A stretch of DNA of 64,000 nt from Escherichia phage MN04. The translations under genes and the position numbers were made by a program. Under the pieces are notes generated by a model. The model was not told the origin of the DNA. It worked only from the letters and a program-made list of their open reading frames with translations, and did not search any database. This document shows, piece after piece, positions 1,302-59,901 of this stretch. The stretch is taken from sequence record MT129654.1; one strand, 5' to 3'. The number at the start of each line of letters is the position of its first letter. Positions within the stretch are counted from its first letter, which is position 1.

Positions 1302-1304
1302 TTA

Positions 1305-1326
1305 AGGGCCGCAAGGCCCTTTTTTG
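1305..1326 (+). terminator. rho-independent terminator
   Basis: AGGGCC-GCAA-GGCCCT hairpin followed by TTTTTT. Confidence 0.6.
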
Positions 1327-4122: not shown

Positions 4123-5091
4123 ATGTACAATATTAAATGTCTATCCGAATCTGAACAGGTTGAAATCGTTAAGTTATATATTTCTGGTAATTATACCCAA
4201 CAAGAACTAGCCGACTGGTATAGTGTATCAGTTGATACAATCCGCAGAGTTTTGAATAACCATAAAGAAGCAGGACAAGCACAAGTGGTTATTACCGGAA
4301 ATATTACGGTAACGGTTCCTAACGAGCCTCGTGTAGTTCCGGTTGAAGTTACTATTGGTGGCTCTCGTCCGGAAATTATCTGGAACGCCAGTTCTAAATT
4401 CGTATCCATCACTGAAGGTCGTACAGTATGGAATACTACTAATAAGAACAAACACTTTGATGCCATCGTACAGGCCCTTAAAGAATCCCGTTTTGATGAT
4501 GCGATTAAACTGATTTCCATTAAAGAAGCTGTTAAGGCTTTCGTTAAAGGTAACGTTCGTATTGAAGGTGGACGTCTGGTTTATCAAGGTATCGAATTGC
4601 GTTCAGGGTTGATTGACCGTATTATCACCTCAATGGAAAATGGCGAAGATTTTGAATTCTACCTGCCGTTCCTTGAGAATCTGTTAGAAAACCCAAGCGA
4701 AAAAGCTGTACAGCGTCTGTTCGACTTCCTGGTCGCGAACGATATCAAAATCACTGAAGACGGCCACTTTATCGCATGGAAAGTTGTTAATTCCGATTAC
4801 ACCGACTGCCGTACTGGTACGTTTGATAACTCGCCAGGTAAGCCAGTTAAAATGCCTCGTTCGCGTGTAAATGATGACGACGAAGTAACTTGTTCAAGTG
4901 GTCTGCACGTTTGCTCTCGTAGCTATATTGGTCATTTTGGTAACTCTAACTGTAAAGTAGTTTCATGCAAAGTTAACCCGCGTGATGTTGTTAGTATCCC
5001 AGTTGATTATGGTGATGCTAAAATGCGTGTATGTTATTATGAAGTTCTGGAAGACGTCACTGAACAGTTCGCAAACGAATACAAATACTAA
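4123..5091 (+). CDS. rIIB: rIIB protein
   Basis: 322 aa; N-terminus MYNIKCLSESEQVEIVKLY resembles T4 rIIB; directly follows rIIA. Confidence 0.9.
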   Translation: MYNIKCLSESEQVEIVKLYISGNYTQQELADWYSVSVDTIRRVLNNHKEAGQAQVVITGNITVTVPNEPRVVPVEVTIGGSRPEIIWNASSKFVSITEGRTVWNTTNKNKHFDAIVQALKESRFDDAIKLISIKEAVKAFVKGNVRIEGGRLVYQGIELRSGLIDRIITSMENGEDFEFYLPFLENLLENPSEKAVQRLFDFLVANDIKITEDGHFIAWKVVNSDYTDCRTGTFDNSPGKPVKMPRSRVNDDDEVTCSSGLHVCSRSYIGHFGNSNCKVVSCKVNPRDVVSIPVDYGDAKMRVCYYEVLEDVTEQFANEYKY

Positions 5092-5129
5092 ATCAATAAA
5101 CGGAGGCTCCGGCCTCCTAAGAGGAAATT

Positions 5130-5327
5130 ATGTTAGATTACCAAGCACGTGTAATTGATGAATATGCCCAACTGGTCTTGAAAATTAATGCACTTGAAGA
5201 GTTTATTAAAGGCGTCGTTTTTGAAACTCTTGATATCCGTCAACAAGGGTTACTGATTGCACAACTGGATGCAATGGGTGCATATGCTCATTGTTTAGAG
5301 GTTCGTATTTCTTATTTCGGTGAGTAA
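5130..5327 (+). CDS. hypothetical protein (65 aa)
   Basis: ATG 8 nt after GAGGAAA SD; preceded by GGAGGC hairpin. Confidence 0.35.
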   Translation: MLDYQARVIDEYAQLVLKINALEEFIKGVVFETLDIRQQGLLIAQLDAMGAYAHCLEVRISYFGE

Positions 5328-7485: not shown

Positions 7486-7513
7486 TTTACAACCTCGAGA
7501 ATCATGTTATAAT
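7485..7513 (+). promoter_or_regulatory. early promoter of ndd (GTTTAC, 17 nt, TATAAT)
   Basis: Perfect consensus hexamers; CGAGAA/TTCTCG inverted repeat flanks the -10. Confidence 0.6.
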
Positions 7514-7562
7514 GGTTCTCGTTGACTGGATAACAAAACATTAATCTACTGAGGAAATTGAT

Positions 7563-8012: not shown

Positions 8013-8089
8013 TGAGCAATTTCCATAACGAACATGTGATGCAGTTCTATCGTAACAATCTTAAAACTAAAGGCGTCTTCGGACGCTAA
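8012..8089 (+). CDS. stp: Stp peptide (activator of host anticodon nuclease in T4)
   Basis: 25-codon [28 protein letters not shown], near-identical to recalled T4 Stp; start overlaps ndd stop (TAATG). Confidence 0.7.
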
Positions 8090-8099
8090 TGAGGAAAAT

Positions 8100-8261
8100 A
8101 TGATTATCCTAGTTTTTATTGAACTTATTATGGCTATGGTTTGTTCAGTTTGCTTCTTTTTAGGTGTATGGACCCCTGGTCCGGTATTCTTAAGTTTTCT
8201 GTTTATTGGCTGGGTTCTTTCTACTTTTGTCGGTTTACTTAAGACGATTAAAAATGATTAA
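8100..8261 (+). CDS. small hydrophobic membrane protein (ac-like by position)
   Basis: 53 aa, ATG after GAGGAAAA SD; sits between stp and gene 52 as T4 ac does; identity not verified. Confidence 0.35.
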   Translation: MIILVFIELIMAMVCSVCFFLGVWTPGPVFLSFLFIGWVLSTFVGLLKTIKND

Positions 8262-9778: not shown

Positions 9779-9879
9779 GCCTTGGAGTCGAGTTCTTGTT
9801 ACTCTGTATCTTTGCTGTTATCCTAGGCCTGGCGACAGGCTTAGCTATAGGTTTAATAGCAGCCCACTTTAAAAAGTAA
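9775..9879 (+). CDS. hypothetical small membrane peptide (34 aa)
   Basis: ATGA overlap with gene 52 stop; hydrophobic; followed by terminator. Confidence 0.25.
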   Translation: MSLGVEFLLLCIFAVILGLATGLAIGLIAAHFKK

Positions 9880-9900
9880 GGAACCTTCGGGTTCCTTTTT
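9880..9900 (+). terminator. rho-independent terminator after gene 52 operon
   Basis: GGAACC-TTCG-GGTTCC hairpin + TTTTT. Confidence 0.6.
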
Positions 9901-10319: not shown

Positions 10320-10329
10320 GGAGATTAAA

Positions 10330-10965
10330 ATGTCTAAAATTACTTATATCATCAAAGCTTCTGAAGACGCCCTGAATGAAAAAACCGCTTCAATCTTAGT
10401 ACATATCATCAAGCATAACTTCATCACTTCAGGCGAAGTCCGTGAAGCCCTGAGTGAACAATTTAGTGCAGCGGTAGTTAACTCTAACATTGGTGTATTG
10501 ATTAAGAAAGGATTCATCGAAAAATCTGGTGATGGACTGGTGGCTACGGGTGAAGCAATGGACCTAGTTCAAAAAGCTGCTGACCTGTTCGCTTCTGAAA
10601 ATGCTCCAGAGATGTTGGAAAAACGTAAAACTCGCAGTTCACGTGGTGTTACTCCTGAAATGGTAGTATTGGCTGGTGAAGTTAAATCTTTGTTAGAAGA
10701 CCGAATCGAGATTCGTGAAATCGCTGAAAACCGTAGCAATCTTGAAGTTCGATTCGCTAAACGTACCAACGGTATTCGTCAAATCGAAGTCCGTCGTGAC
10801 GGAATGATGCGTATCTTCGGTTATAATATGACCGATAAAGAAAAACAAGTGTTTACTTCCTTGAATCTTGATGTTAAGATTAAGACTGGTGGTAAGAATA
10901 CTTATATCGACTTCCAAAACGTATCATCTGAAGTTATCAAAACCGTAACCAACGCAATTATCTGA
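10330..10965 (+). CDS. motA: middle-transcription activator MotA
   Basis: 211 aa as in T4; N-terminus MSKITYIIKASEDALNEKTASIL and NSNIGVLIKKGFIEKSGDGL resemble T4 MotA. Confidence 0.85.
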   Translation: MSKITYIIKASEDALNEKTASILVHIIKHNFITSGEVREALSEQFSAAVVNSNIGVLIKKGFIEKSGDGLVATGEAMDLVQKAADLFASENAPEMLEKRKTRSSRGVTPEMVVLAGEVKSLLEDRIEIREIAENRSNLEVRFAKRTNGIRQIEVRRDGMMRIFGYNMTDKEKQVFTSLNLDVKIKTGGKNTYIDFQNVSSEVIKTVTNAII

Positions 10966-14455: not shown

Positions 14456-14486
14456 ATAAACCTCCAAGGGGCCTAAGCCCCTCTTA

Positions 14487-18513: not shown

Positions 18514-18537
18514 GAAAAAAAGGAACCCGAAGGTTCC
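18514..18537 (-). terminator. rho-independent terminator after gene 35
   Basis: GGAACC-TTCG-GGTTCC hairpin; T-run on minus strand. Confidence 0.55.
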
Positions 18538-19659
18538 TTAATATTTTTCTCTAAATTCAGCGACCCAAACCTGACCAGGTTTAGTGCCTGTTTTATCATA
18601 TAGCTGGGCTATGGTAGTACCCATATTTTTAGTTTCCGTACCAAAGTTCATACGAATACCGTTAACACCAAATTCAGCAGGTTTTGGCTGAGGTTCTGAT
18701 TCAGATATCTCACCGAACATAACATTTCGAACTCCGCCTTGGCCAGCCGAAGCTGTTTTTCTGGCATAAAGGGTAAAGTCTGTAGTACCTTCAGGAACCA
18801 TTACTACCCGTTCAAACGTCATCCATGCACCAGCAGGAACGTTGGAAGGAACGTCCATATTAACTGTCCCAGTTAAAGCACCTGAAGCATTAAAAAATCT
18901 AACAGACATCTGAGAAGTCCCGACGTCTTTTAAAGCCTGGTCGCACATCATTTGAAACTTAAGGTAAAAGAATTCACCTGGTTTCATATTATAATCTGTT
19001 AATGGGGTAGTAGGAGATTCGGTGGGAAATCGCTTAATTTCATCTCCCTCATTGCTTAGATAAGTGCTTTCGTCTTCAACAATTCTGACAGGATATCCTG
19101 TACCACCGACGTCGCTGATATCATCAAATACCACTTCTAATGGAGTAGAAACATCTTCGACAAGCACCCCATCATTATAAAGCACATGTTCCATTACTAT
19201 AGCATTCCTTCCCGAAACATAAAATGCTGAATAAGACGGCTCGAAGCGGTCTATTAGCCATTTAGATGGAAATGCGGTACTTCCTGCTGCATGGAACCAA
19301 TCGATAAGTTTTTGTGAAGCATTTAATCTACCGGAAGATACTAAACAAACTATTCTATTGGCTGGTATAGAATTTATATACGTTATAAAAGCTTCAGAAA
19401 TAACATCAAAATCTTTTGTAAAACTATAAGTTTTGTTAGCCACTATTTTGGGTTCAGCACTAACATCGATTTCTATAAGGTTTAATCCATTTTGAAAATT
19501 TTGGGAACCGAAGTTCCCATCTTGAAATTTAACATATGCCTTTGTGGTAGACTTAGTACAACTACCCGCTATACTAAGTTTATACCTTACGGCATTGTTT
19601 TCAGATAATGTAGGAACCTGGACATATCCTTGTCCAAATTCTGCCATAAATCTTTCCAT
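18538..19659 (-). CDS. 35: long tail fibre hinge connector gp35
   Basis: 373 aa (T4 gp35 is about 372 aa); position. Confidence 0.8.
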   Translation of the reverse strand: MERFMAEFGQGYVQVPTLSENNAVRYKLSIAGSCTKSTTKAYVKFQDGNFGSQNFQNGLNLIEIDVSAEPKIVANKTYSFTKDFDVISEAFITYINSIPANRIVCLVSSGRLNASQKLIDWFHAAGSTAFPSKWLIDRFEPSYSAFYVSGRNAIVMEHVLYNDGVLVEDVSTPLEVVFDDISDVGGTGYPVRIVEDESTYLSNEGDEIKRFPTESPTTPLTDYNMKPGEFFYLKFQMMCDQALKDVGTSQMSVRFFNASGALTGTVNMDVPSNVPAGAWMTFERVVMVPEGTTDFTLYARKTASAGQGGVRNVMFGEISESEPQPKPAEFGVNGIRMNFGTETKNMGTTIAQLYDKTGTKPGQVWVAEFREKY

Positions 19660-26980: not shown

Positions 26981-26997
26981 GTTATTGATTTATAATG

Positions 26998-27022
26998 GGA
27001 AGACTTCGGTCTTCCCTTTTTG
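26998..27022 (+). terminator. rho-independent terminator after gene 32
   Basis: GGGAAGAC-TTCG-GTCTTCCC hairpin + TTTTT. Confidence 0.65.
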
Positions 27023-28112: not shown

Positions 28113-28148
28113 GTTTACAAGGTCTATAGGCATGATACTATAGACCTA
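28113..28148 (+). promoter_or_regulatory. early promoter cassette with stem-loop around -10
   Basis: GTTTAC, 17 nt, TACTAT; AGGTCTATAG/CTATAGACCT inverted repeat. Confidence 0.5.
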
Positions 28149-28403: not shown

Positions 28404-28440
28404 GTTTACCTAAGGCTATGGTAGTGATACTATAGCCTTA
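28404..28440 (+). promoter_or_regulatory. early promoter cassette with stem-loop around -10
   Basis: GTTTAC, 17 nt, ATACTA; AAGGCTAT/ATAGCCTT inverted repeat. Confidence 0.5.
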
Positions 28441-28459
28441 TCAATTTGAGGAGAATAAA

Positions 28460-31295: not shown

Positions 31296-31361
31296 ATATC
31301 AGTCCATGCTTAACAGGTTCTATGATAGAATAATTGTAGAACCTAACATATTGAGGAAATT

Positions 31362-33670: not shown

Positions 33671-34810
33671 ATGTCTACAGTTTTTAATACTACCCCAGTT
33701 GATGTTTTAGTCGAACCGATGTTCTTTGGTTCAGGATTGGGTATTGCTCGTTACGATATCCAACGTCATAAAGTATTCGAAGAGCTTTGTGAAAAGCAGT
33801 TGAGTTTCTTCTGGCGTCCAGAGGAAGTTAACTTGATGATGGATGCTGCCCAGTTTAATAAGCTTCCACAATTCCAACAAAATATTTTTACCAATAACCT
33901 GAAGTATCAATCACTTCTGGATAGTATCCAGGGACGTGCGCCGTCTGCTGCACTCCAAGCCTTGATTTCAGACCCTAGCCTTGATACTTGGGTGGCTACA
34001 TGGACCTTTAGTGAAACCATTCACTCTCGTTCGTATACCCATATCATGCGTAACCTTTATACAGACCCATCTAAGGTATTTGATGAAATTCTGTTAGATG
34101 AAGCTATCATGAAACGTGCTGAATCTATTGGTCGTTATTATGATGATGTTATTGAGAAAACCAGACTTTACCAGAATGCCTTAGAAGAATATCATGAGTT
34201 TAGCGAAGGCGTAAAACAGGCCAAATACGAACTAATGCGCTCTCTTTACCTCTGCCTGCATGTAATCAATGCATTGGAAGCTATTCGTTTTTACGTATCT
34301 TTCGCATGCACCTTTAACTTCCATAAGAATATGGAAATCATGGAAGGTAATGCTAAGATTATGAAGTTCATTGCACGTGATGAACAGCTTCACCTTAAAG
34401 GCACCCAATATATTATTCGTCAACTCCAGCTTGGTACTGATGGTGATGAATGGGTTAAAATTGCTCAAGAGTGCGAACAAGAAGCAGTTGATATTTTCAT
34501 GGAAGTTAACCGACAAGAAAAAGAGTGGGCTGCGCACCTGTTCAAAGACGGTACTTGCCCTGGATTAAATACTCAGAACATGGGTGCTTTTGTCGATTAC
34601 CTGACAGTTTCTCGTATGAAGCAATGTGGCTTACCATGTCCTATTACTGATGCTCCTACTCGCCATCCATATCCTTGGATTCGCGAATACCTGAACTCTG
34701 ATGCTGTACAGGCTGCTCCTCAGGAAGTGGAAATCAGTTCTTACCTTGTAGCACAAATTGATAATGATGTCGATGAAAAAGTAATGGCGTCATACAAGAA
34801 ATATTTTTAA
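33671..34810 (+). CDS. nrdB: ribonucleotide reductase small subunit NrdB (intron-less)
   Basis: MSTVFNTTPVDVLVEPMFFGS start as recalled for T4; in-frame ATG also at 33641; continuous ORF. Confidence 0.85.
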   Translation: MSTVFNTTPVDVLVEPMFFGSGLGIARYDIQRHKVFEELCEKQLSFFWRPEEVNLMMDAAQFNKLPQFQQNIFTNNLKYQSLLDSIQGRAPSAALQALISDPSLDTWVATWTFSETIHSRSYTHIMRNLYTDPSKVFDEILLDEAIMKRAESIGRYYDDVIEKTRLYQNALEEYHEFSEGVKQAKYELMRSLYLCLHVINALEAIRFYVSFACTFNFHKNMEIMEGNAKIMKFIARDEQLHLKGTQYIIRQLQLGTDGDEWVKIAQECEQEAVDIFMEVNRQEKEWAAHLFKDGTCPGLNTQNMGAFVDYLTVSRMKQCGLPCPITDAPTRHPYPWIREYLNSDAVQAAPQEVEISSYLVAQIDNDVDEKVMASYKKYF

Positions 34811-34837
34811 GGAATGGGGCTTCGGCCCCTTATTGCT

Positions 34838-35251
34838 ATGAAAGAAATCGCAGATGAATTTAGCTTTATCAAGTACGTTACACTGGAGCTCCAAACAGAT
34901 GCTACTATAGCCCCTATCACGGTTCCAAACAAACAAAATGTCATATATGCTATAGCGGTTGATGATATACTAGTCTACATCGGGAAGACTAAAAATCTTC
35001 GTAAGCGCATCAACTACTACCGAACAGCTATTAATCGTAAGGACCAAACGTCGGATTCGACCAAGTCCATTCTGATTCATGAAGCATTAATGGCTGGTAA
35101 AAAGGTAGAGTTCTATGCTAGACAGTGCTTTAATCTGTCGATGACTAACGAACTTGGAACTATGTCAGTTGAGACCATGTCTCTTGAAGAGCCAATGTTC
35201 ATAAAGAAATTTAATCCACCTTGGAATACCCAACATAGGATAAAGCAATGA
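34838..35251 (+). CDS. denA: endonuclease II (GIY-YIG family)
   Basis: MKEIADEFSFIKY...VIYAIAVDDILVYIGKTKNLRKRINYYR near-identical to recalled T4 EndoII; in-frame ATG also at 34814 inside a hairpin. Confidence 0.85.
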   Translation: MKEIADEFSFIKYVTLELQTDATIAPITVPNKQNVIYAIAVDDILVYIGKTKNLRKRINYYRTAINRKDQTSDSTKSILIHEALMAGKKVEFYARQCFNLSMTNELGTMSVETMSLEEPMFIKKFNPPWNTQHRIKQ

Positions 35252-43345: not shown

Positions 43346-43350
43346 GTTAT

Positions 43351-43378
43351 GGGACTCTTCGGAGTCCCATTTTTGTTT
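43351..43378 (+). terminator. rho-independent terminator
   Basis: GGGACTC-TTCG-GAGTCCC hairpin + ATTTTTGTTT. Confidence 0.65.
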
Positions 43379-43396: not shown

Positions 43397-43460
43397 GTAT
43401 ACATCTCCAGTAGGCATGATACTATAGACATGTACCAAATAATACGAAAACAAACTGGAG
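43397..43460 (+). promoter_or_regulatory. early promoter cassette with SD-covering inverted repeat
   Basis: GTATAC, 17 nt, TACTAT; arms CTCCAGT 43405-43411 and ACTGGAG 43454-43460. Confidence 0.5.
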
Positions 43461-43470
43461 AATAAAATGA
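43431..43470 (+). repeat. 40-nt direct repeat (leader/RBS cassette), copy 1
   Basis: TGTACCAAATAATACGAAAACAAACTGGAGAATAAAATGA identical to 43837-43876. Confidence 0.8.
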
Positions 43471-43799
43471 AAACTGTAAACCTGAATGCATCTGTTAAAG
43501 CTAAATGTTTCAACGGTGAATATCAAGAAACCATGTGGGTCCTGACTGCAGTTGAAGGTGATATCATCGAAGTTGAAACAACTGAAGGTATGGGTACTGA
43601 TTTCACATTTACCATCGAGCTTCACAACTTCTTTACAGGTTGGATTTATGAACTGAAAACTGTAATTACTGGTCGTATTGAAGAAAACAAAATTGGTGAA
43701 TTCTATTACGTTAATGCCCGTACACGTGCTGAACGTCTGATTGCTCAGATGAAAAAAGTTGGTAAACTTGATATGAAAAATTGGAATGTTGTGAAATAA
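43467..43799 (+). CDS. hypothetical protein (110 aa)
   Basis: ATG after CTGGAGAATAAA cassette, copy 1 of 40-nt repeat. Confidence 0.4.
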   Translation: MKTVNLNASVKAKCFNGEYQETMWVLTAVEGDIIEVETTEGMGTDFTFTIELHNFFTGWIYELKTVITGRIEENKIGEFYYVNARTRAERLIAQMKKVGKLDMKNWNVVK

Positions 43800-43802
43800 A
43801 TG

Positions 43803-43842
43803 TTTTACTTTGGTACAGGTTGTGTTATTATAGACCTGTACC
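43803..43842 (+). promoter_or_regulatory. early promoter cassette with stem-loop
   Basis: TTTTAC, 17 nt, TATTAT; GGTACAGGT/ACCTGTACC inverted repeat. Confidence 0.45.
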
Positions 43843-43876
43843 AAATAATACGAAAACAAACTGGAGAATAAAATGA
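43837..43876 (+). repeat. 40-nt direct repeat (leader/RBS cassette), copy 2
   Basis: Identical to 43431-43470. Confidence 0.8.
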
Positions 43877-44238
43877 ACTACATCAACTTCGAACGTAAAT
43901 ATGTTTCTAACGGTATCGCTGGTTCTTCTGAAGTTATTTGTCTGTGGAAACACAACAACGGCACAGTGTGCGAAATCGAACAGTGCATGACTCCTAACTA
44001 CGTTTATATGCGCTTTGAAAATGGTATCACGGTTTCAATCACTATGGAAGGTTCTACTTTTAAAATCGCTTTGGATGATGATTTCCGTCAACGTGATTTA
44101 GGTACCCATCCTTGCTGGAACGGTGATAATCGTAAGCTTCTGGTTAAAACCTGGATTCGTCACATCCTGAGCAACCGTGCTAAACCTGAACACCTGGAAG
44201 CAATCTTTGATGTAGTTCTGAATGAATTTGATATCTAA
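43873..44238 (+). CDS. hypothetical protein (121 aa)
   Basis: ATG after identical 40-nt leader cassette, copy 2. Confidence 0.4.
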   Translation: MNYINFERKYVSNGIAGSSEVICLWKHNNGTVCEIEQCMTPNYVYMRFENGITVSITMEGSTFKIALDDDFRQRDLGTHPCWNGDNRKLLVKTWIRHILSNRAKPEHLEAIFDVVLNEFDI

Positions 44239-44279
44239 TCTTAAAAATGGAGGCTTCTGCCTCCTTTGAGGAAAATATT

Positions 44280-44567
44280 ATGTTTATGACCACTTATTTC
44301 GATACTCGTAAAAATTTCTGTGAAGTTGTCTTCTCTAAGGCAGGTAAAGATGTTCCTGCTGACAAACAGCCTACTCGTGAATCCATTAAGGCCTATGCTG
44401 ATGTGGTTTGTCCAGTAGAATTCCGTACAGTCAATGGTCGTGACACCCTAGCAATCACTAAGCTCAACCGCGATATTAACATCGACCCAAGTGTCGCCCG
44501 CGAAGTCAATACTTCTGACATCTACGGCGGTAATGTTAAATCACATGGATTCCAGATGAGGTTCTAA
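44280..44567 (+). CDS. hypothetical protein (95 aa)
   Basis: ATG after TTTGAGGAAAATATT SD; track start 44247 lies inside an upstream hairpin. Confidence 0.35.
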   Translation: MFMTTYFDTRKNFCEVVFSKAGKDVPADKQPTRESIKAYADVVCPVEFRTVNGRDTLAITKLNRDINIDPSVAREVNTSDIYGGNVKSHGFQMRF

Positions 44568-48071: not shown

Positions 48072-50159
48072 ATGACCGAACAATTAAATGAAGTGTTTGA
48101 GTCCGAAGGCACCCTGCCTACTGTAAACTTAAACCCAAAACTTAAAGTACCCCAGATTTGGAAGATTGGCGACGCCGAATCCCAATTAGTTGCTCGTATG
48201 GTATCTTATGCCTCTGAAGGCGATGCTATTAAACAGGTTAAATTAGGTGATAAATATGCCCACGTTATTTTGATGAGTTTATCAGCTAAAGGTACTCCAG
48301 CCGAACTTAAAGGTGGATTAGGCCCTACTCCTATTGATGCTATTAATACCATTTTCGACGTAGTATTCGAACAAGTTAAAAAGCTTCGTATGGATGCTGT
48401 GATGTTCCGTTTTCCAACCAAGAAAATGAAAGGACAAGGACCTATTGTCCAACGGATTATCCAACGTTTGGTAGCACAGAAAACCGGTGGACGTTTTAAA
48501 GTAGTTCCAGCCATGTACCAATTTACCGGTAAACATACTTATATCCTAGTAGTTCGTAAACAAGCTGATATCGAAGATATCAAAGGTATGCCTGGAATTA
48601 ATGCCGAATTATATACTAAGGTAGATTCTGATGTTGGTGAAGTTTATATTTCTAAAAAAGAAGGCGCTCAGGTTACTAAAGAAACCGCTATTGCCGGCAG
48701 TATTGCTAAAGTTGAAGAACGTCGCACTGATAAAATGGTTATAACCAAGACTAAGATTTCTCGTCGTGCGATTGCGGCAAGCCAGTCATTAGAAGCAGAC
48801 CGTAATGAAGGTGAATTATTTCAGAAATATGAACAAACTGCCAATGAGTTCAGTGCGCCTGCTACGGCGGAATTAATTCCACAAGCAGCCGAAGTTGAAT
48901 TATCATTATCATCCGAAACAGCTAAGGATAAGCTGGCTACGGCTATTGATTTTAAAATTTATAATACTATGGATGATTCATTTAAATTTGCGGATGAAGT
49001 TTCTTACGGTGATAAAATTAACTCTTCTTTAGAAAAATTTGTCAAAAAAATTAAAAATGAAAAAACCACGTCAGTTAAAGCTTTAGCCGCCTTTGTTGAA
49101 GCTGCTAATGAAATCGCAGAATCTATTAAAAGTGATTGGTTTGAAGATTATAGAAAAGACAATTTCCATTTGGAAAAAGAGATATTGAATGAAAACAGTG
49201 AAAGAGTATGGAAACAACGTAAGTCTTCATTCTTGTCTAAGATAATGTATACATACGCTATAGAATCAACTAGAGAAATTCTTAATATAACAACATCTCG
49301 AGACCCTAAACAATATACACTTGCAGAAAAACGAGCTATCAGAGAATACGCCTCTTCAGCTTATATTGATATTAACAATGTCCTTCTTGGCCGTTATAAA
49401 CCGGGCTTTTATGAAGTTTTGGACGAAAGCGAAGTTAAACGTGCTATTGATGGAATGGATTCTGCCTTTAAAAATGGTGACCGTTTACCTGAAGGAATAA
49501 TGGTTTATAGAGCACAATCTTTGCGCGCGCCTATCTACGAAGCATTAGTTAAAAATAAGGTATTCTATTTTAGAAACTATGTTTCAACCTCATTGGCTCC
49601 AATCATTTTTGGTGGCTTTAAAGAGAATGCGGCTATTGGTCTTGCTTCCGATGATGTTCGAAAAGAATTAAACATTGATAATAATGACGAAGGCGTTACC
49701 ATCTCTGCTAGTCAAGTGCGTACACATATGTATGCGCCGGATCAAATCCGTGTTGATGTTGGCTGGGCTATTAGTGGCGCTCATAAGGTTAACGTGATTT
49801 ATCCTGGCCAATTAAGCATGCATGCCAACGAAAAGGAAATAATTTTACCACGCGGGCTACTTGTAAAAATAGATAAAATCGTGGATGCATCAGCCAATAC
49901 TGGTTCTGGGGCGGTTTCTAACAATAAATTTATTCAAGCTGAAGTTATGACATCAGATGAGCTTCAAGAATCTGTAGTGTATGATGGTGACGTACTAATG
50001 GAAACCGGTGAGTTGGTCGTATACCAAGATGACTTCGATACTTCCGAAAGCCCTGTATCTTTTGATTCATTTGTTAAATCTACACGGTTTGACGTACTGC
50101 CTCTTTTGGCTTCATGCATAGACCTCTATGGCATACCAGAAAAATTCATCCAAGGGTAA
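48072..50159 (+). CDS. alt: Alt-like ADP-ribosyltransferase, copy 1
   Basis: 695 aa; locus between gene 30 and gene 54 as T4 alt; C-terminal R/S-x-S/E-x-E signature: VYRAQSL, YVSTSL, EKEIILPRG. Confidence 0.75.
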   Translation: MTEQLNEVFESEGTLPTVNLNPKLKVPQIWKIGDAESQLVARMVSYASEGDAIKQVKLGDKYAHVILMSLSAKGTPAELKGGLGPTPIDAINTIFDVVFEQVKKLRMDAVMFRFPTKKMKGQGPIVQRIIQRLVAQKTGGRFKVVPAMYQFTGKHTYILVVRKQADIEDIKGMPGINAELYTKVDSDVGEVYISKKEGAQVTKETAIAGSIAKVEERRTDKMVITKTKISRRAIAASQSLEADRNEGELFQKYEQTANEFSAPATAELIPQAAEVELSLSSETAKDKLATAIDFKIYNTMDDSFKFADEVSYGDKINSSLEKFVKKIKNEKTTSVKALAAFVEAANEIAESIKSDWFEDYRKDNFHLEKEILNENSERVWKQRKSSFLSKIMYTYAIESTREILNITTSRDPKQYTLAEKRAIREYASSAYIDINNVLLGRYKPGFYEVLDESEVKRAIDGMDSAFKNGDRLPEGIMVYRAQSLRAPIYEALVKNKVFYFRNYVSTSLAPIIFGGFKENAAIGLASDDVRKELNIDNNDEGVTISASQVRTHMYAPDQIRVDVGWAISGAHKVNVIYPGQLSMHANEKEIILPRGLLVKIDKIVDASANTGSGAVSNNKFIQAEVMTSDELQESVVYDGDVLMETGELVVYQDDFDTSESPVSFDSFVKSTRFDVLPLLASCIDLYGIPEKFIQG

Positions 50160-50162
50160 ATA

Positions 50163-52286
50163 ATGGAAAATTTAAACGAAGTTTTTGATAGTGATTCCGC
50201 TAAAAACTATCCAGTAACAAATCTTAAGCCGGGCTCCGGTATCCCACAGATTTTCTCTATCCAAGCACCAGGTAACGATAACCTGGTTGCTCGTATGGTA
50301 TCTTATGCGTCTCAAGGAGACGCTATTAAAATGGTTAAGCCAGGCGACAAATATGTCCATGTTATTTTAATGAGTTTGTCGAGCAAGGGTGCTCCAGCCG
50401 AACTCAAAGGTGGTCTTGGTTCCGACCCACTTGGTGCATTGAATACTATTTTTGATACGATATACGAACAAGTAAATAAACTTAAAATGGATGCGGTTTT
50501 GTTCCGTTTCCCTACCAAGAAAATGAAAGGTAAGGGCCCTACTGTTCAGCGTGTATTAGCTCGTTTGGCGATGGCACGTACCGGTGGTAAGTTTAAAGTT
50601 GTCGATGATATGTTCCAGTTTAGTGGTAAACATACATACGTTCTTTTAGCACGTCGTGGCACTAATATCGAAGATATCAAGGGTATGCCTGAAATTGATG
50701 CGGACCTTTATACCAAGGTTGAGTCTAAAGTCGGTGAAGTTTATGTTTCTAAGAAAACCGGCCAGGCCGTAAGTAAGGTCGAAGCCGTAGCGGCATCTAT
50801 TGCACAGGTTGAAGAGAAACGTACCGATAAGGCTGTTATCTCTCGTACTAAAATTTCCCGTCGTATGGCTGCAGCAGCGCAGTATTCTACTGCCGAACCT
50901 GAAACTTTATCACCTAAAGAATTGCAGGTTTATAACGAGTTTGAAGCTTCTGTCCCTGTTCACTCGGCCGAAGGCCCTGAGAACGAAGGTATTGAGCAGA
51001 TTAGTCAGAACTTTAAAAAAGGTGCTATTACTAAAATGCGTCAGGCCTCTCAGTTTAAATCTAAGAGTGAGGACCTTGCCAACTTTAGATACACCATTGC
51101 TCTCACGCACGCTTTAATGACTGATAGTAAATTTAAACTAAATTATGCTAATAGAGATAAACAAGGGTTTGAAATTTACTCTAATAATATGGCATTTTTT
51201 AATACGGAAGTCGATAGACTTTTAAGTGGCCTTTCTCAAATCAATACTACCAATAGTCTGGATATTATTAAGAGAATTGTTAATAACCTGAGTGCCCGTT
51301 TTCAGGGGTCTCCTTCAGAGAAAGCATCCCGAATTGCTTTCGCTATGGAAGCCGTTTATAAACTGATTAACGATTCTATTAGCGATGCATATGCTTATTC
51401 AGGCGAGCTCATTAAACCTAAGGGCTTGACCAAAGACGAAAGTAATGCCATTATTGAATATTGTGCGGCTGAATATGCTCCTATGAACTTATTCCTTTTA
51501 GGTAAACCTGAATCCGAAAACAATACAACAGCTATTAAATTGATTAAGGATTTAGACTCAGCATTTACCAAGGGTATTAAACTTCCTAAGGGTACTATTT
51601 TGTATCGTGGTCAGGATTTACCATACAAAATTCTGCGCCATAATATTGATAACAAAACATTTTACTTTAAGAACTTTGTGTCCGCTTCATTAAAGCCTAA
51701 TATCTTTGGCGAATTTGGTAAAAATTATATGGCCCTCGACAACCAAGCAGTTTTTGTTGGCGATGAAGGTTCTTTATCCTCCGCTGATGAGTTGTTTAAA
51801 TTAGCCAGTGGTAGTTCATCTGATGTAGGCGAAGTTGATGATGAAGAGGTAGAATGGGAAGAAGACGAGTTCGGTAATCCAATTGCACCTGAAGGCCCTG
51901 CAGACAGGATTGCTGAAATCGGTATGGTTATTCGAGGTGCTGAAGCAGTTAAAGTTATCGCTCCTGGTGACCTTACAGAATATTCCGAAGAAGCAGAAAT
52001 TATCCTTCCGCGAGGATTATTGTTGAAGGTTGATAAAGTAGCGGCTTTTGCTATGAATGATAGAGTATCTCACAAATACCTTATGGAAGCTACAGTGACA
52101 TCTCCTTCAGAACTCAGTGGGTCCGTTTACGATGGTGACCATCTGATGGAAACCGGTGAAGTTAAATTGATGAATGGGTTTAAAGAATTCCTAGTTTCAG
52201 AATCTGTTTCAGAAAGTAATGAGGCTATGGAAATCCTTGCTGCATCTTTGGACATCTCTTCTTTACCAAATAAATTCAAAATGTAG
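50163..52286 (+). CDS. Alt-like ADP-ribosyltransferase, copy 2 (divergent paralog)
   Basis: 707 aa; N-terminal region clearly homologous to copy 1; ART signature LYRGQDL, FVSASL, EAEIILPRG; central region unrelated. Confidence 0.7.
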   Translation: MENLNEVFDSDSAKNYPVTNLKPGSGIPQIFSIQAPGNDNLVARMVSYASQGDAIKMVKPGDKYVHVILMSLSSKGAPAELKGGLGSDPLGALNTIFDTIYEQVNKLKMDAVLFRFPTKKMKGKGPTVQRVLARLAMARTGGKFKVVDDMFQFSGKHTYVLLARRGTNIEDIKGMPEIDADLYTKVESKVGEVYVSKKTGQAVSKVEAVAASIAQVEEKRTDKAVISRTKISRRMAAAAQYSTAEPETLSPKELQVYNEFEASVPVHSAEGPENEGIEQISQNFKKGAITKMRQASQFKSKSEDLANFRYTIALTHALMTDSKFKLNYANRDKQGFEIYSNNMAFFNTEVDRLLSGLSQINTTNSLDIIKRIVNNLSARFQGSPSEKASRIAFAMEAVYKLINDSISDAYAYSGELIKPKGLTKDESNAIIEYCAAEYAPMNLFLLGKPESENNTTAIKLIKDLDSAFTKGIKLPKGTILYRGQDLPYKILRHNIDNKTFYFKNFVSASLKPNIFGEFGKNYMALDNQAVFVGDEGSLSSADELFKLASGSSSDVGEVDDEEVEWEEDEFGNPIAPEGPADRIAEIGMVIRGAEAVKVIAPGDLTEYSEEAEIILPRGLLLKVDKVAAFAMNDRVSHKYLMEATVTSPSELSGSVYDGDHLMETGEVKLMNGFKEFLVSESVSESNEAMEILAASLDISSLPNKFKM

Positions 52287-58888: not shown

Positions 58889-59512
58889 ATGAATTATACT
58901 TTTGACGTAAAAATTAAAAACAAGACCATAAAATGCAGAGCATTTACCCTCAGAGAGTATAAGGACTTGCTCCAAGCTAAATTAGAAGACAGAATAGAGC
59001 CCTTTATCAATGAACTCATTTTGAATTGCACAGATGCTCGTGGTTTAAACAAGCAAGAATCTGAGCTCCTGGTGATAAACCTGTGGGCCCATTCACTAGC
59101 TGAAGTGAATATAGAACGTGAGTGGGTTTGTAGTTGTGGTCGCTCACAGATTGTCCCTATGACGTTAACTCGCGCTACATTAGGTAAAGAGCCTGATATT
59201 ATTAAGGACTTCGGCAACTTTAAAATAGTGTTCAGATATCCTAAGCTCTTTGAAGACAAAAATAGGGCTATGATGGTTGCAGGATGTATCGATTATATTT
59301 TAACTTCTGCAGGCGAAAAGCTTCTTCTTTCTGATTTAAGTGATGCGGAACTAGACGACCTTTATTCTGTGATAACGGAAAAAGATGTAAAAGAAATTTA
59401 TGATGCTCTAGTCGCCCCTAAGCCTATTTTGGCCATACCTATTTCTTGTGAATGTGGTGAGCATACCGTCCACGTTATTGAGGGACTTAAAGAGTTCTTT
59501 AAGGTGATGTAA
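58889..59512 (+). CDS. 26: baseplate hub subunit gp26
   Basis: 207 aa (T4 gp26 208 aa); ATG after AAGGAGAAG SD and late promoter TATAAATA. Confidence 0.75.
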   Translation: MNYTFDVKIKNKTIKCRAFTLREYKDLLQAKLEDRIEPFINELILNCTDARGLNKQESELLVINLWAHSLAEVNIEREWVCSCGRSQIVPMTLTRATLGKEPDIIKDFGNFKIVFRYPKLFEDKNRAMMVAGCIDYILTSAGEKLLLSDLSDAELDDLYSVITEKDVKEIYDALVAPKPILAIPISCECGEHTVHVIEGLKEFFKVM

Positions 59513-59901
59513 TGAATATCGATAAAATGTATTCAGATTTAGACCCTGAAATGAGGACGTCTTGGAATAGAGACGTCGCTAAAGCTACAGGGGCCCGTGC
59601 AGTAAAAAATAGTTTGTTAGGCATTATTACTACTCGTAAGGGTTCTCGCCCTTTTATGCCTGAATTTGGTTGTGATATCAGTAATCAACTATTTGAGAAT
59701 ATTACCCCATTAATCACGGATACCATTAAGCGTAATATAGTTTCCGCTGTGCGGAACTTCGAACCTAGAATTTCTGCTCTTGCCGTAGGCGTTACCCCTG
59801 TTTATGATGACAACTCTATTATAGTAACCGTCCAGTTTAGTATTGTTGATGACCCAGATACATTAGAGCAAATTAGAATCCAGATCTCACAGAGTGGTTA
59901 A
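59512..59901 (+). CDS. 25: baseplate wedge protein gp25 (lysozyme-like fold)
   Basis: 129 aa; LLGIITTRKGSRPFMPEFGCD and VRNFEPRI match T4 gp25. Confidence 0.85.
   Translation: MNIDKMYSDLDPEMRTSWNRDVAKATGARAVKNSLLGIITTRKGSRPFMPEFGCDISNQLFENITPLITDTIKRNIVSAVRNFEPRISALAVGVTPVYDDNSIIVTVQFSIVDDPDTLEQIRIQISQSG

Follow-up and report, generated by a model that had tools for sequence, protein, structure and literature searches.

Conserved mRNA stem-loops of a long-known type between genes of a T4-like Escherichia phage

Introduction

The gap behind rIIB in Escherichia phage MN04 raises the question of what a small, very stable GC-rich hairpin is doing directly in front of the ribosome-binding site of the next gene. 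Stem-loops between the cistrons of bacterial operons, such as the REP sequence in malE-malF, give differential mRNA stability. Hairpins with a CUUCGG core are also described as abundant in the intergenic regions of T4 (Tuerk et al. 1988, PNAS 85:1364, as cited in PMC8948821). An original prediction, made from the letters of a 64,000-nucleotide stretch of the phage (record MT129654.1; hereafter the window), linked the rIIB hairpin with two others, one between genes 30.7 and 30.6 and one before denA. The window derives from a Dhakavirus, a JS98/JS10-like T4-type phage, and we set these three hairpins (sites 1, 2 and 3, in the order named) against their counterparts in related phages and against the known RNA elements that they resemble.

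Results and discussion

Position and architecture of the three hairpins

All three hairpins are present in the window with the sequences given for them, each between a stop codon and the next start codon (Table 1). Those of sites 1 and 3 lie where they had been placed; that of site 2 starts at 44249, the position 44259 previously given as its start belonging to the 3' arm. Sites 1 and 2 share one layout, in which a stop codon is followed by 10 nt, the hairpin, 3 nt, GAGG and AUG: at the DNA level GGAGGC-TCCG-GCCTCC (5102-5117) is followed by TAAGAGGAAATT and the ATG at 5130, and GGAGGC-TTCT-GCCTCC (44249-44264) by TTTGAGGAAAATATT and the ATG at 44280. The order at site 3 is SD, hairpin, AUG, the hairpin ending 8 nt 5' of the denA ATG at 34838. 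The view that the hairpins abut the next SD thus describes sites 1 and 2 only, since that of site 3 stands between AAGGA and the AUG; likewise, the notion of one recurrent element holds for the first two sites, which are alike, and fails for the third, the architecture of which differs.

The loops also vary. Site 1 carries C(UCCG)G, a UNCG tetraloop, and site 3 carries C(UUCG)G, whilst the C(UUCU)G of site 2 is a variant outside the special tetraloops. At both GGAGGC sites the loop of most close relatives is UUCG, so that the loops of the window are minor variants, and one relative (L007) has UCCG at site 1 in common with it. We also considered whether the second and third hairpins might be coding, as part of open reading frames starting from the ATGs at 44247 and 34814, and rejected this because these extensions are unconserved and the homologues begin at the downstream ATG.

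Table 1. Coordinates of the hairpins, their flanking signals and other hairpins of the class in the window
Feature	Position	Strand	Remarks
Site 1 hairpin, GGAGGC-UCCG-GCCUCC	5102-5117	+	rIIB / denB.1 gap; dG -11.8
rIIB stop TAA	5089-5091	+	10 nt 5' of hairpin 1
denB.1 SD GAGG; ATG	5121-5124; 5130-5132	+	sequence; JS10 annotation
Site 2 hairpin, GGAGGC-UUCU-GCCUCC	44249-44264	+	30.7 / 30.6 gap; dG -11.0
30.7 stop TAA	44236-44238	+	10 nt 5' of hairpin 2
30.6 SD GAGG; ATG	44268-44271; 44280-44282	+	sequence; JS10 and T4 annotation
Site 3 hairpin, GGGGC-UUCG-GCCCC	34816-34829	+	between denA SD and AUG; dG -9.6
nrdB stop TAA; overlapping SD-like AAGGA	34808-34810; 34809-34813	+	24 nt 5' of denA AUG
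True denA start codon, MKEIA...	34838-34840	+	homology to T4 EndoII (PDB 2WSH) starts at MKEIA
GCGUC-UUCG-GACGC, then UAAUGAGGAAAAUAUG	8073-8086	+	overlaps last stp codons; repeat family D9; JS10 annotation
AGGGGC-UUAG-GCCCCU, after gene 37, then GGAGG and gene 38 AUG	14467-14482	-	
AAGGGCC-GCAA-GGCCCUU UUUU, then early-type promoter	1304-1321	+	U-run; terminator score +10
AAGGAACC-UUCG-GGUUCCUU UUU, then early-type promoter	9878-9897	+	
AAGGAACC-UUCG-GGUUCCUU with U-run	18520-18539	-	20-mer identical to 9878-9897; sense for late genes; terminator score +16
GGGAAGAC-UUCG-GUCUUCCC UUUUU, then early-type promoter	26997-27016	+	terminator score +16
AUGGGACUC-UUCG-GAGUCCCAU UUUU, after 30.9	43349-43370	+	terminator score +25
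Gene 26/25 split initiation region, internal control	59480-59514	+	GAGG 59480-59483, hairpin 59486-59503, AUG 59512

Selection at the RNA level

The suggestion that these are RNA-level elements, and not chance palindromes, is upheld by an excess of hairpins over shuffled sequence, the strand on which the special loops lie and the conservation of pairing. The window holds exactly two copies of the pattern GGAGGC-N4-GCCTCC (GGAGGCNNNNGCCTCC), where 0.03 would be expected, and none of 100 shuffles gave as many. More generally, the plus strand holds 72 hairpins with a dG of -8 kcal/mol or below where dinucleotide shuffles give 30 +/- 5, and these are about five times as dense in intergenic as in coding sequence. 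When the 23 perfect GC-rich tetraloop hairpins are read on the sense strand, nine have UNCG and three GNRA loops, compared with none and one, respectively, on the antisense strand. Taken together, the excess, the intergenic enrichment and the bias of the loops towards the sense strand point to selection at the level of RNA.

Conservation adds to this. A hairpin follows rIIB in 21 of 25 T4-like loci, with differing stems, and lies between nrdB and denA in 34 of 36, with some 12 different stems; at the 30.7-30.6 junction all 14 related loci have one, as does T4, built on GGAGGC, GGGGC or GAGGGGC stems and closed by UUCG, GAAA or UUUG (UUCA in T4). In the comparison with T4 intercistronic regions that had been proposed, T4 itself carries hairpins at all three orthologous junctions, although that of site 1 is weak there (about -4 kcal/mol). 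Changes on both sides of the stem that keep the pairing are found at four to five of six pairs at sites 3 and 1 and at two of six at site 2, counts which are inflated because the alignments (A1-A3) were anchored on the best hairpin picked at each locus; the level of covariation observed was reached by no shuffle at any of the three sites. At site 3, un-anchored MAFFT alignment with RNAalifold recovered the same helix.

A role at the level of DNA or of the antisense strand, in which the hairpins would be minus-strand terminators or recombination junctions for modular shuffling, is hard to reconcile with these data. The minus strands of sites 1 and 2 do run on into GUUUAUUGAU and AUUUUUAAGA and are flagged by a simple terminator scan, and the indel breakpoints in JS10 and in a T4-like contig (L067) fall beside or within the site-2 hairpin. 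However, A-rich 5' flanks of this sort are usual in T4 intergenic DNA, the indel examples number only two, antisense terminator scores are -12 to -19 and the special tetraloops stand at 12 sense to one antisense. We rejected antisense-strand terminators on the scores and the loops, and give the DNA-level reading as a whole almost no credence.

We also asked whether the two GGAGGC hairpins could be copies of one mobile module, and rejected this because their likeness extends only to the stem and to the generic SD/ATG consensus of early genes (family D9). With a UUCG loop, the exact 16-mer turns up in at least 120 stretches, from viral contigs that differ greatly in size and in flanking sequence, which makes convergence the simpler reading. 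An Rfam search of the whole window returned nothing above the gathering score.

These hairpins are conserved mRNA stem-loops of a type long known between the genes of T4-like phages, and their identification as members of the T4 class of intercistronic C(UUCG)G hairpins is an ordinary finding. They lie in intergenic regions on the sense strand, keep their pairing and carry a tetraloop, with a loop variant at site 2; like the T4 class, which is abundant in T4-type phages, they have complementary arms of 5-10 nt on the mRNA strand, and they differ from it in the UCCG of site 1 and the UUCU of site 2. In the polycistronic mRNAs of T4-type phages such hairpins are routine punctuation. No long-standing question is opened by them, and the value of the present analysis lies mainly in annotation, in that sites 1-3 should be called neither RegB sites nor strong terminators.

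Transcription termination

Like intrinsic terminators, these hairpins have a GC-rich stem capped by a stable tetraloop close behind a stop codon, and further hairpins of the class in the window carry U-runs and score positively as terminators. The original prediction had the three sites lacking a U-tract, which is true of site 1, with its tail UAAGAGG (UAAGAGGA), and not of sites 2 and 3, the tails of which, UUUG (UUUGAGGA) and UUAUUGCU, hold only three to four U, where a U-tract would have about four or more within 8 nt directly behind the hairpin. On a d'Aubenton-Carafa-type scale with modern energy parameters, the zero point of which is approximate, site 1 scores -28.9 and sites 2 and 3 are borderline at -5.8 and -0.9, and the hairpins of the window form a continuum from +25 to -29. 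An early-type promoter comes after each of the U-run hairpins at 1304, 9878 and 26997, whereas hairpins lacking a U-run adjoin an SD with no promoter. At sites 1-3 we found no promoter-like site between the upstream stop codon and the next ATG. Since the SD or AUG of the next gene comes directly after the hairpin with no promoter in between, read-through is required, in which respect, as in the short or missing U-tract, these sites are unlike intrinsic terminators. The claim that they are unlikely to be simple terminators can thus be kept in part: termination is probably inefficient where the next gene needs read-through, but the borderline scores of sites 2 and 3 leave those two sites less clear-cut.

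It might still be argued that the hairpins are full terminators or attenuators and nothing else, setting the ratio of upstream to downstream expression and having no part in stability or translation. In distant lineages the hairpin after rIIB stands at the same position and has a U-run, which in Dhakavirus and T4 is replaced by TAAGAGG, TAATGAGG or CTTAACTAAGG, and the exact GGAGGCUUCGGCCUCC core has at least six T in the eight positions after it in about 45% of the 125 matches listed, which are spread over at least 120 viral contig stretches. In a reporter assay, the PeSL stem-loops of RB49 and phi1 lowered lacZ expression as much as rrnB T1, a very strong terminator (PMC2839356), so that sites 1 and 2 could terminate better than their tails suggest. 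Set against this are the complete lack of a U-tract at site 1 together with its low score, the want of a promoter for the genes downstream and the conserved SD-hairpin-AUG geometry of site 3, which termination alone leaves unexplained. On balance we regard a purely terminating function as unlikely. A search of a literature library found no transcript 3'-end map (Term-seq) for T4-type phages.

PeSL cassettes, known from RB49/phi1, PST and nt-1 (PMC2839356, PMC4122927), resemble our sites in placing a stem-loop, an SD and a start codon where small early genes meet in hyperplastic regions. We rejected this assignment for sites 1-3 because the early promoter that completes the defining composite is missing. 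PeSL-like cassettes are present elsewhere in the window, and an early-promoter cassette family (D1) has eight copies in it, none of them at sites 1-3.

GGAG and the RegB endoribonuclease

The GGAG of these hairpins had been put forward as a target of RegB, and this part of the original prediction is not borne out. In its favour, sites 1 and 2 each have a GGAG in the gap between early genes, where RegB/S1 cleavage sites lie, and regB is encoded in the lineage (JS10 annotation); RegB, or another specific endonuclease, would then cut the 5'-arm GGAG and so inactivate or process the message. RegB, however, requires some 11 nt of single-stranded GGAGRAYARAA (PMC1702504; PMC3014915), and the motif at sites 1 and 2 is not single-stranded, as GGAG makes up four of the six pairs of a stem of -11 to -12 kcal/mol, the minimum free energy (MFE) structure of which accounts for about 0.97 of the ensemble. 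Nor does the A-rich 3' half exist: GGAG is followed by GCUCCGG at site 1 and GCUUCUG at site 2, neither of which matches RAYARAA, and neither site is among the matches when the window is scanned for the consensus with up to one mismatch. The perfect consensus sites in the window are instead unstructured SDs, of the form GGAGAAUAAAA-AUG, at 28450, 43457 and 43863. GGAG is also absent from site 3 and is not kept at the orthologous hairpins, where stems such as GGGGC, GGGGAC, AAGGGAC and GAGGGGC are found. This is in line with the work of Durand et al., who tested T4 intergenic GGAG motifs and found the 16 that lie inside stem-loops, 'often' with UUCG tetraloops, to be RegB-resistant (PMC1702504). 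We therefore rejected the sites as RegB targets on structure, consensus, non-conservation and the published resistance of structured GGAG; cleavage at this motif is extremely unlikely.

The junctions behind rIIB and 30.7

The account that we favour, and consider probable from the sequence comparisons, is that all three are T4-type extra-stable tetraloop hairpins in intercistronic gaps, acting at the RNA level on the sense strand in two architectures, A at sites 1 and 2 and B at site 3, with none of them a RegB site. For sites 1 and 2, the most likely role would be that of a 3'-end element of the upstream cistron, serving as both leaky terminator and exonuclease barrier. Each may be a weakened intrinsic terminator in which the U-tract has been replaced by the ribosome-binding site of the next gene, so that most polymerases would continue into denB.1 or 30.6. 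The stem would mark the 3' end of the upstream message and, after occasional termination or after cleavage downstream, would shield it from 3'-to-5' exonucleases, the barrier role being one that we infer. REP-type stem-loops such as that of malE-malF offer a parallel, being stable stems between the cistrons of a read-through transcript for which a 3'-exonuclease barrier guarding the upstream segment has been proposed, but the phage hairpins, which have no sequence relationship to them, are much smaller and consist of one stem with a special tetraloop.

The assignment is supported by the U-run hairpins that stand at the same position after rIIB in distant lineages, by the continuum of terminator scores and by the contrast between U-run hairpins with a promoter behind them and hairpins that adjoin an SD and have neither. 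In JS10, 30.8 and 30.7 are missing along with the site-2 hairpin, yet the SD and AUG of 30.6 are retained, which indicates that the hairpin travels with the upstream module; 30.7 comes with a promoter and 5'UTR cassette of its own (family D12). The state of JS10 also weighs against the hairpins being 5' elements of the downstream cistron. According to that proposal, RNase E would cut in the AU-rich stretch between stop codon and hairpin, leaving a 5'-terminal stem that protects the mRNA, insulates the ribosome-binding site from folding with upstream RNA, or both. The hairpins of sites 1 and 2 do end just 3 nt 5' of the SD, and a 5' CUUCGG hairpin is reported, in the account given in PMC8948821, to stabilise the gene 32 mRNA of T4. 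In contig L067, moreover, a truncated site-2 hairpin lies downstream of a promoter, in the would-be 5'UTR of 30.6, and since 30.7 is absent the hairpin there cannot be a 3'-end element. Nevertheless, 30.6 of JS10 uses the same SD and AUG with no hairpin, and the positional homologues elsewhere bear the U-runs that are typical of 3'-end elements, so that we think a 5' role quite improbable.

Translation may also be involved. In the MFE structure of site 2 the helix is extended (UCUUAAA with UUUGAGG) and the SD of 30.6 is partly sequestered, which points to translational coupling and not to a purely 3'-end role. A more elaborate version of this would make the GGAGG/CCUCC hairpins a switch that mimics the SD:anti-SD pair. 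The CCUCC of the 3' arm is identical to the anti-SD core of 16S rRNA and can alternatively pair with the next SD (CCUC-N4-GAGG at 5114-5124 and 44261-44271), so that opening of the stem by a terminating ribosome, or cutting of the 5' arm by a nuclease, would free an arm to sequester the downstream SD and thereby couple translation of denB.1 or 30.6 to the upstream cistron. We mention this switch as a speculation with a very slim chance of being correct.

The nrdB-denA junction

Site 3 seems to serve a different purpose. Its junction resembles, as a third case, the split initiation regions described for T4 genes 25 and 38 (Nivinskas 1999; Malys and Nivinskas 2009; as reviewed in PMC3014915), a reading by analogy that would make AAGGA, overlapping the nrdB stop codon, the only SD of denA. 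No SD occurs in the 24 nt between AAGGA and the AUG, and the 14-nt hairpin, flanked by 2 nt on its 5' side and 8 nt on its 3' side, would loop out the intervening RNA to leave an effective spacing of about 10 nt. The gene 26/25 junction in the window, our internal control, has the same geometry (2 nt, hairpin, 8 nt), and hairpin-bridged initiation has been validated experimentally for gene 25 of T4 (PMC3014915). Sites 1 and 2 are not split initiation regions, as they have a normal GAGG 5-8 nt 5' of the AUG.

Pairing energies with the anti-SD are consistent with this. In the window the duplex is favourable in the 5' flank of the hairpin (-6.1 kcal/mol) and unfavourable in the 8 nt on its 3' side (+2.2). 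The 5' side gives -3.7 to -8.0 kcal/mol in 14 of 15 lineages (-1.7 in the remaining one, L058) and the 3' side about zero or positive values in all 15. Right behind the nrdB stop the sequence TAAGG(A/G) is conserved. The SD and the AUG are separated by a linear distance of 23-24 nt in all but one of the 15 lineages and of 28 nt in that one, and the bridged spacing across them is 5-10 nt, inside the functional range of 5-11 nt. Like genes 25 and 38, therefore, denA has an SD more than 20 nt from its AUG, a stable hairpin that brings it to within 5-10 nt and no normally placed SD. It is unlike them in being an early gene with a GC-rich UUCG hairpin and a U-rich tail, by virtue of which the hairpin may at the same time terminate transcription weakly behind nrdB. 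In T4 the helix can be extended over the GGAG SD through G-U pairs, which would inhibit, not help, initiation.

Termination-reinitiation offers another explanation for this site alone, in which ribosomes end nrdB at the UAA and restart at the denA AUG 27 nt on, with the hairpin a terminator or a passenger. The overlap of AAGGA with the nrdB stop is compatible with this, and a terminating ribosome would melt the stem, which the stop precedes by only 5 nt. Such a mechanism accounts poorly, however, for the near-constant linear distance, for the conservation of the hairpin through covarying stems of about 12 types and for a geometry that is the same as in the experimentally supported gene 25 case, and we consider it very unlikely.

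We found no description of a split denA initiation region in the literature library searched. The arrangement at denA is conserved far beyond the close T-evens, to which reports of the gene 25 structure are confined. If the split region is real, a terminator-type UUCG hairpin can also act as a bridge between SD and AUG, and this way of initiating would have a greater age and a broader spread among T4-type phages than gene 25 suggests. A split region would also explain why gene callers start denA inside the hairpin, at a GTG in the RefSeq entry of T4 and at an ATG in JS10; the in-frame ATG at 34814, upstream of the denA start in the window, is not conserved.

Intercistronic hairpins

All three GC-rich palindromes of the original prediction are found in the window; for site 2 the hairpin itself stood, while its proposed start at 44259 did not, that position lying inside the 3' arm. 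The 64 kb contain exactly two copies of the motif GGAGGC-N4-GCCTCC where 0.03 would be expected, and the predicted folding energies are -11.8, -11.0 and -9.6 kcal/mol for sites 1, 2 and 3, respectively. On the + strand, 72 hairpins with a ΔG of -8 kcal/mol or below were observed compared with 30 ± 5 in dinucleotide shuffles, from which the chance of such a hairpin in a random 60-nt stretch is estimated at about 3%. Stable hairpins are about five times denser in intergenic DNA, which makes up 6.5% of the window. The three-hairpin observation is real and non-random. The phage is T4-type, genus Dhakavirus, with 96-97% identity to JS10, JS98 and IME281, and its + strand carries the early genes. 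Two alt-like paralogues stand in tandem at 48072-50159 and 50163-52286 (695 and 707 aa), with 75-83% nucleotide identity over stretches.

The sites belong to a class that is already known, the T4 intercistronic hairpins described by Tuerk et al. (1988), as summarised in PMC8948821; Rfam gave zero family matches across the whole window. Among 23 perfect GC-rich tetraloop hairpins, the loops read in sense include nine UNCG and three GNRA, against none and one in antisense, and since such an asymmetry is meaningless for DNA, the sites are RNA elements. Two further members (9878 and 18520) are identical over 20 nt, both sense to local genes and both followed by a U-run. The member overlapping stp precedes UAAUGAGGAAAAUAUG of a small ORF (8100-8261) without a JS10 annotation.

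Positions of hairpins and related elements (gene names at sites 1-3 follow the JS10 and T4 annotations)
Feature	Position	Strand	Context
Site 1, GGAGGC-UCCG-GCCUCC	5102-5117	+	rIIB (4123-5091)/denB.1 (ATG 5130) gap
Site 2, GGAGGC-UUCU-GCCUCC	44249-44264	+	30.7 (43873-44238)/30.6 (ATG 44280) gap
Site 3, GGGGC-UUCG-GCCCC	34816-34829	+	nrdB (stop 34808-34810)/denA gap
Class member, GCAA loop	1304	+	
Class member, UUCG loop	26997	+	
Class member, UUCG loop	43349	+	
Class member, UUCG loop	48020	+	
Class member	14467		after gene 37
Class member	52641		between convergent genes
Class member, GCGUC-UUCG-GACGC	8073-8086	+	overlaps stp last codons (KGVFGR, stop)
Class member, AAGGAACC-UUCG-GGUUCCUU	9878-9897	+	
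Class member, AAGGAACC-UUCG-GGUUCCUU	18520-18539	-	late-gene sense strand
Perfect RegB consensus GGAGAAUAAAAUG	28450, 43457, 43863		unstructured SD
Near-consensus RegB site GGAGAUUAAAAUG	10320-10332		unstructured SD before motA start
Promoter/5'UTR/SD repeat, 55 nt (copies 95% identical)	43417-43471		before 30.8
Promoter/5'UTR/SD repeat, 55 nt (copies 95% identical)	43823-43877		before 30.7
Early-promoter cassettes, 8 copies, ~65 nt each	6554, 9911, 10255, 23756, 27024, 28104, 36387, 43388		

Comparing the three junctions across T4-like phage contigs from IMG/VR and T4 itself, we found a strong hairpin no more than 70 nt past the rIIB stop in 21/25 loci. Its stems include GGAGGC, GGGGC, GGGGAC, AAGGGAC, AAAGGGCC, TAAGCCCTC and AAAGGCCCTC, its loop is nearly always UUCG, and it is followed by a U-run in distant lineages, by TAAGAGG or TAATGAGG in Dhakavirus and a neighbouring group, and by CTTAACTAAGG in T4. 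A hairpin is present at 30.7/30.6 in all 14 loci, with GGAGGC or GGGGC stems and UUCG, GAAA or UUUG loops (GAGGGGC-UUCA-GCCCCUU in T4), and at nrdB/denA in 34 of the 36, with about 12 different stems. Both sides of a pair have changed at four to five of six pairs at sites 3 and 1, and at two of six at site 2. Paired cells amount to 96-99%, far over shuffled and slid controls, in alignments whose anchoring on a chosen hairpin favours structure; the site 3 helix was recovered with covariation by un-anchored MAFFT and RNAalifold.

The denA initiation region

Modestly new is a predicted, conserved split initiation region for denA together with the resulting mis-annotation of its start codon; our literature search found no description of such a region for this gene. 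In the ORF list and in JS10 as annotated, denA begins at ATG 34814, and RefSeq T4 puts the start on a GTG within the hairpin between nrdB and denA (NC_000866 137951; position 11952 of L199, the T4 comparison locus). Homology to T4 EndoII (PDB 2WSH) starts at MKEIA, that is ATG 34838, as does the solved EndoII structure, and changes in the 5' 'extension' from 34814 follow stem covariation, with no protein-level conservation. Judged from these comparisons, the start in public records is probably mis-annotated.

Site 3 is organised unlike sites 1 and 2. No SD lies between hairpin and denA AUG in any lineage, the anti-SD duplex energy there being about zero or positive (15 lineages). For TAAGG(A/G), which overlaps the nrdB stop, this energy is -3.7 to -8.0 kcal/mol in 14 lineages and -1.7 in the fifteenth. 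The linear distance from SD to AUG is 23-24 nt in 14/15 lineages and 28 nt in the other; with the hairpin closed, the spacing is 5-10 nt. This geometry is the same as that of the window's gene 26/25 junction (59480-59514; GAGG, 2 nt, an 18-nt hairpin CUUAAAG-AGUU-CUUUAAG, 8 nt, AUG), where the gene 25 AUG overlaps the gene 26 stop and the published split initiation region is seen. Experimental support exists in T4 for gene 25 (27 to 11 nt) and gene 38 (22 to 5 nt) (PMC3014915).

Sites 1 and 2

Both sites are laid out as stop, 10 nt, hairpin, 3 nt, GAGG, 5-8 nt and AUG. Between sites 1-3 and the next ATG there is no sigma-70, MotA-box or late-promoter match, so the downstream genes rely on read-through and the sites are probably not efficient terminators; the proposal that they are not simple terminators was reasonable, as was its suggestion of possible stability elements. 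On a d'Aubenton-Carafa-type discriminant with an approximate zero point, sites 3, 2 and 1 score -0.9, -5.8 and -28.9, and the hairpins at 1304, 18520, 26997, 43349 and 52641 score positive. A caveat on weak termination is that RB49 PeSL stem-loops cut reporter lacZ expression like a very strong terminator (PMC2839356).

JS10 has no 30.8, 30.7 or site-2 hairpin, the indel (window 43432-44267 vs 10935-10945 of the JS10 locus, L001) running from the promoter cassette to just 5' of the 30.6 SD, and its 30.6 directly follows the cassette with the same GAGGAAAAAAUAUUAUG. Because of this deletion, we regard the site-2 hairpin as part of the upstream module and dispensable for the 30.6 RBS; the U-run positional homologues likewise support upstream membership. 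Since a promoter and 5'UTR cassette of its own (repeat family D12) precedes each of 30.8 and 30.7, 30.7 plus hairpin resembles a promoter-ORF-stem-loop unit. Our reading is that sites 1 and 2 most likely serve the upstream cistron as leaky terminator and 3'-barrier elements, crowded up against the RBS that follows. Caution is due, because seven weak pairs (UCUUAAA with UUUGAGG, 44239-44271) can extend the site-2 helix over the 30.6 SD, as also predicted for Dhakavirus relatives and not for T4, and because one T4-like contig (L067) without 30.7 keeps a truncated site-2 hairpin downstream of a promoter.

In most close relatives both sites read GGAGGC-UUCG-GCCUCC; no relative fetched has the window's UUCU loop of site 2, and its UCCG loop of site 1 recurs in L007 only. 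The likeness of the two sites stops at the stem and at a generic TIR consensus of early genes, TGAGGAAAATATTATG (repeat families D6, D7, D9 and D11). With a UUCG loop, the exact 16-mer turns up in at least 120 viral contig stretches of very diverse sizes and flanks, and about 45% of 125 occurrences among the matches listed are followed by at least six T in eight, which makes it a generic terminator-type hairpin core. The shared stem is, on this pattern, probably convergent.

RegB is probably available, as its gene is present in JS10, which is the nearest relative with an annotation. Its target is about 11 nt of single-stranded GGAGRAYARAA (PMC1702504, PMC3014915), to which neither the site 1 nor the site 2 hairpin has a match. 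GGAG at both is base-paired, and in T4 16 GGAG motifs in intergenic stem-loops, often with UUCG loops, are RegB-resistant (PMC1702504). Nor is GGAG conserved at orthologous positions, and on these grounds the suggested RegB link is not supported. In T4, the mRNA of motA is among the classic targets of RegB, and the window has a near-consensus site before motA. Both 55-nt repeat copies end in the perfect consensus.

Promoter cassettes

Hairpins without a U-run adjoin an SD, and behind three U-run hairpins (1304, 9878 and 26997) an early-type promoter (TTTACA-N16/17-TAnnAT) follows within about 40 nt. The eight-copy cassettes, laid out as GTTTACA...CATGATACTATAGACCTATCAACTAA...GAGG and in several copies preceded by a U-run hairpin, are like the PeSL regulatory cassettes of RB49 and phi1. 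Long palindromes (arms of 10-13 bp) lie over the -10 of early/middle-type promoters at 7496-7521, 28120-28147, 28411-28440 and 31315-31344; transcripts would fold the complete hairpin only when they read through from upstream.
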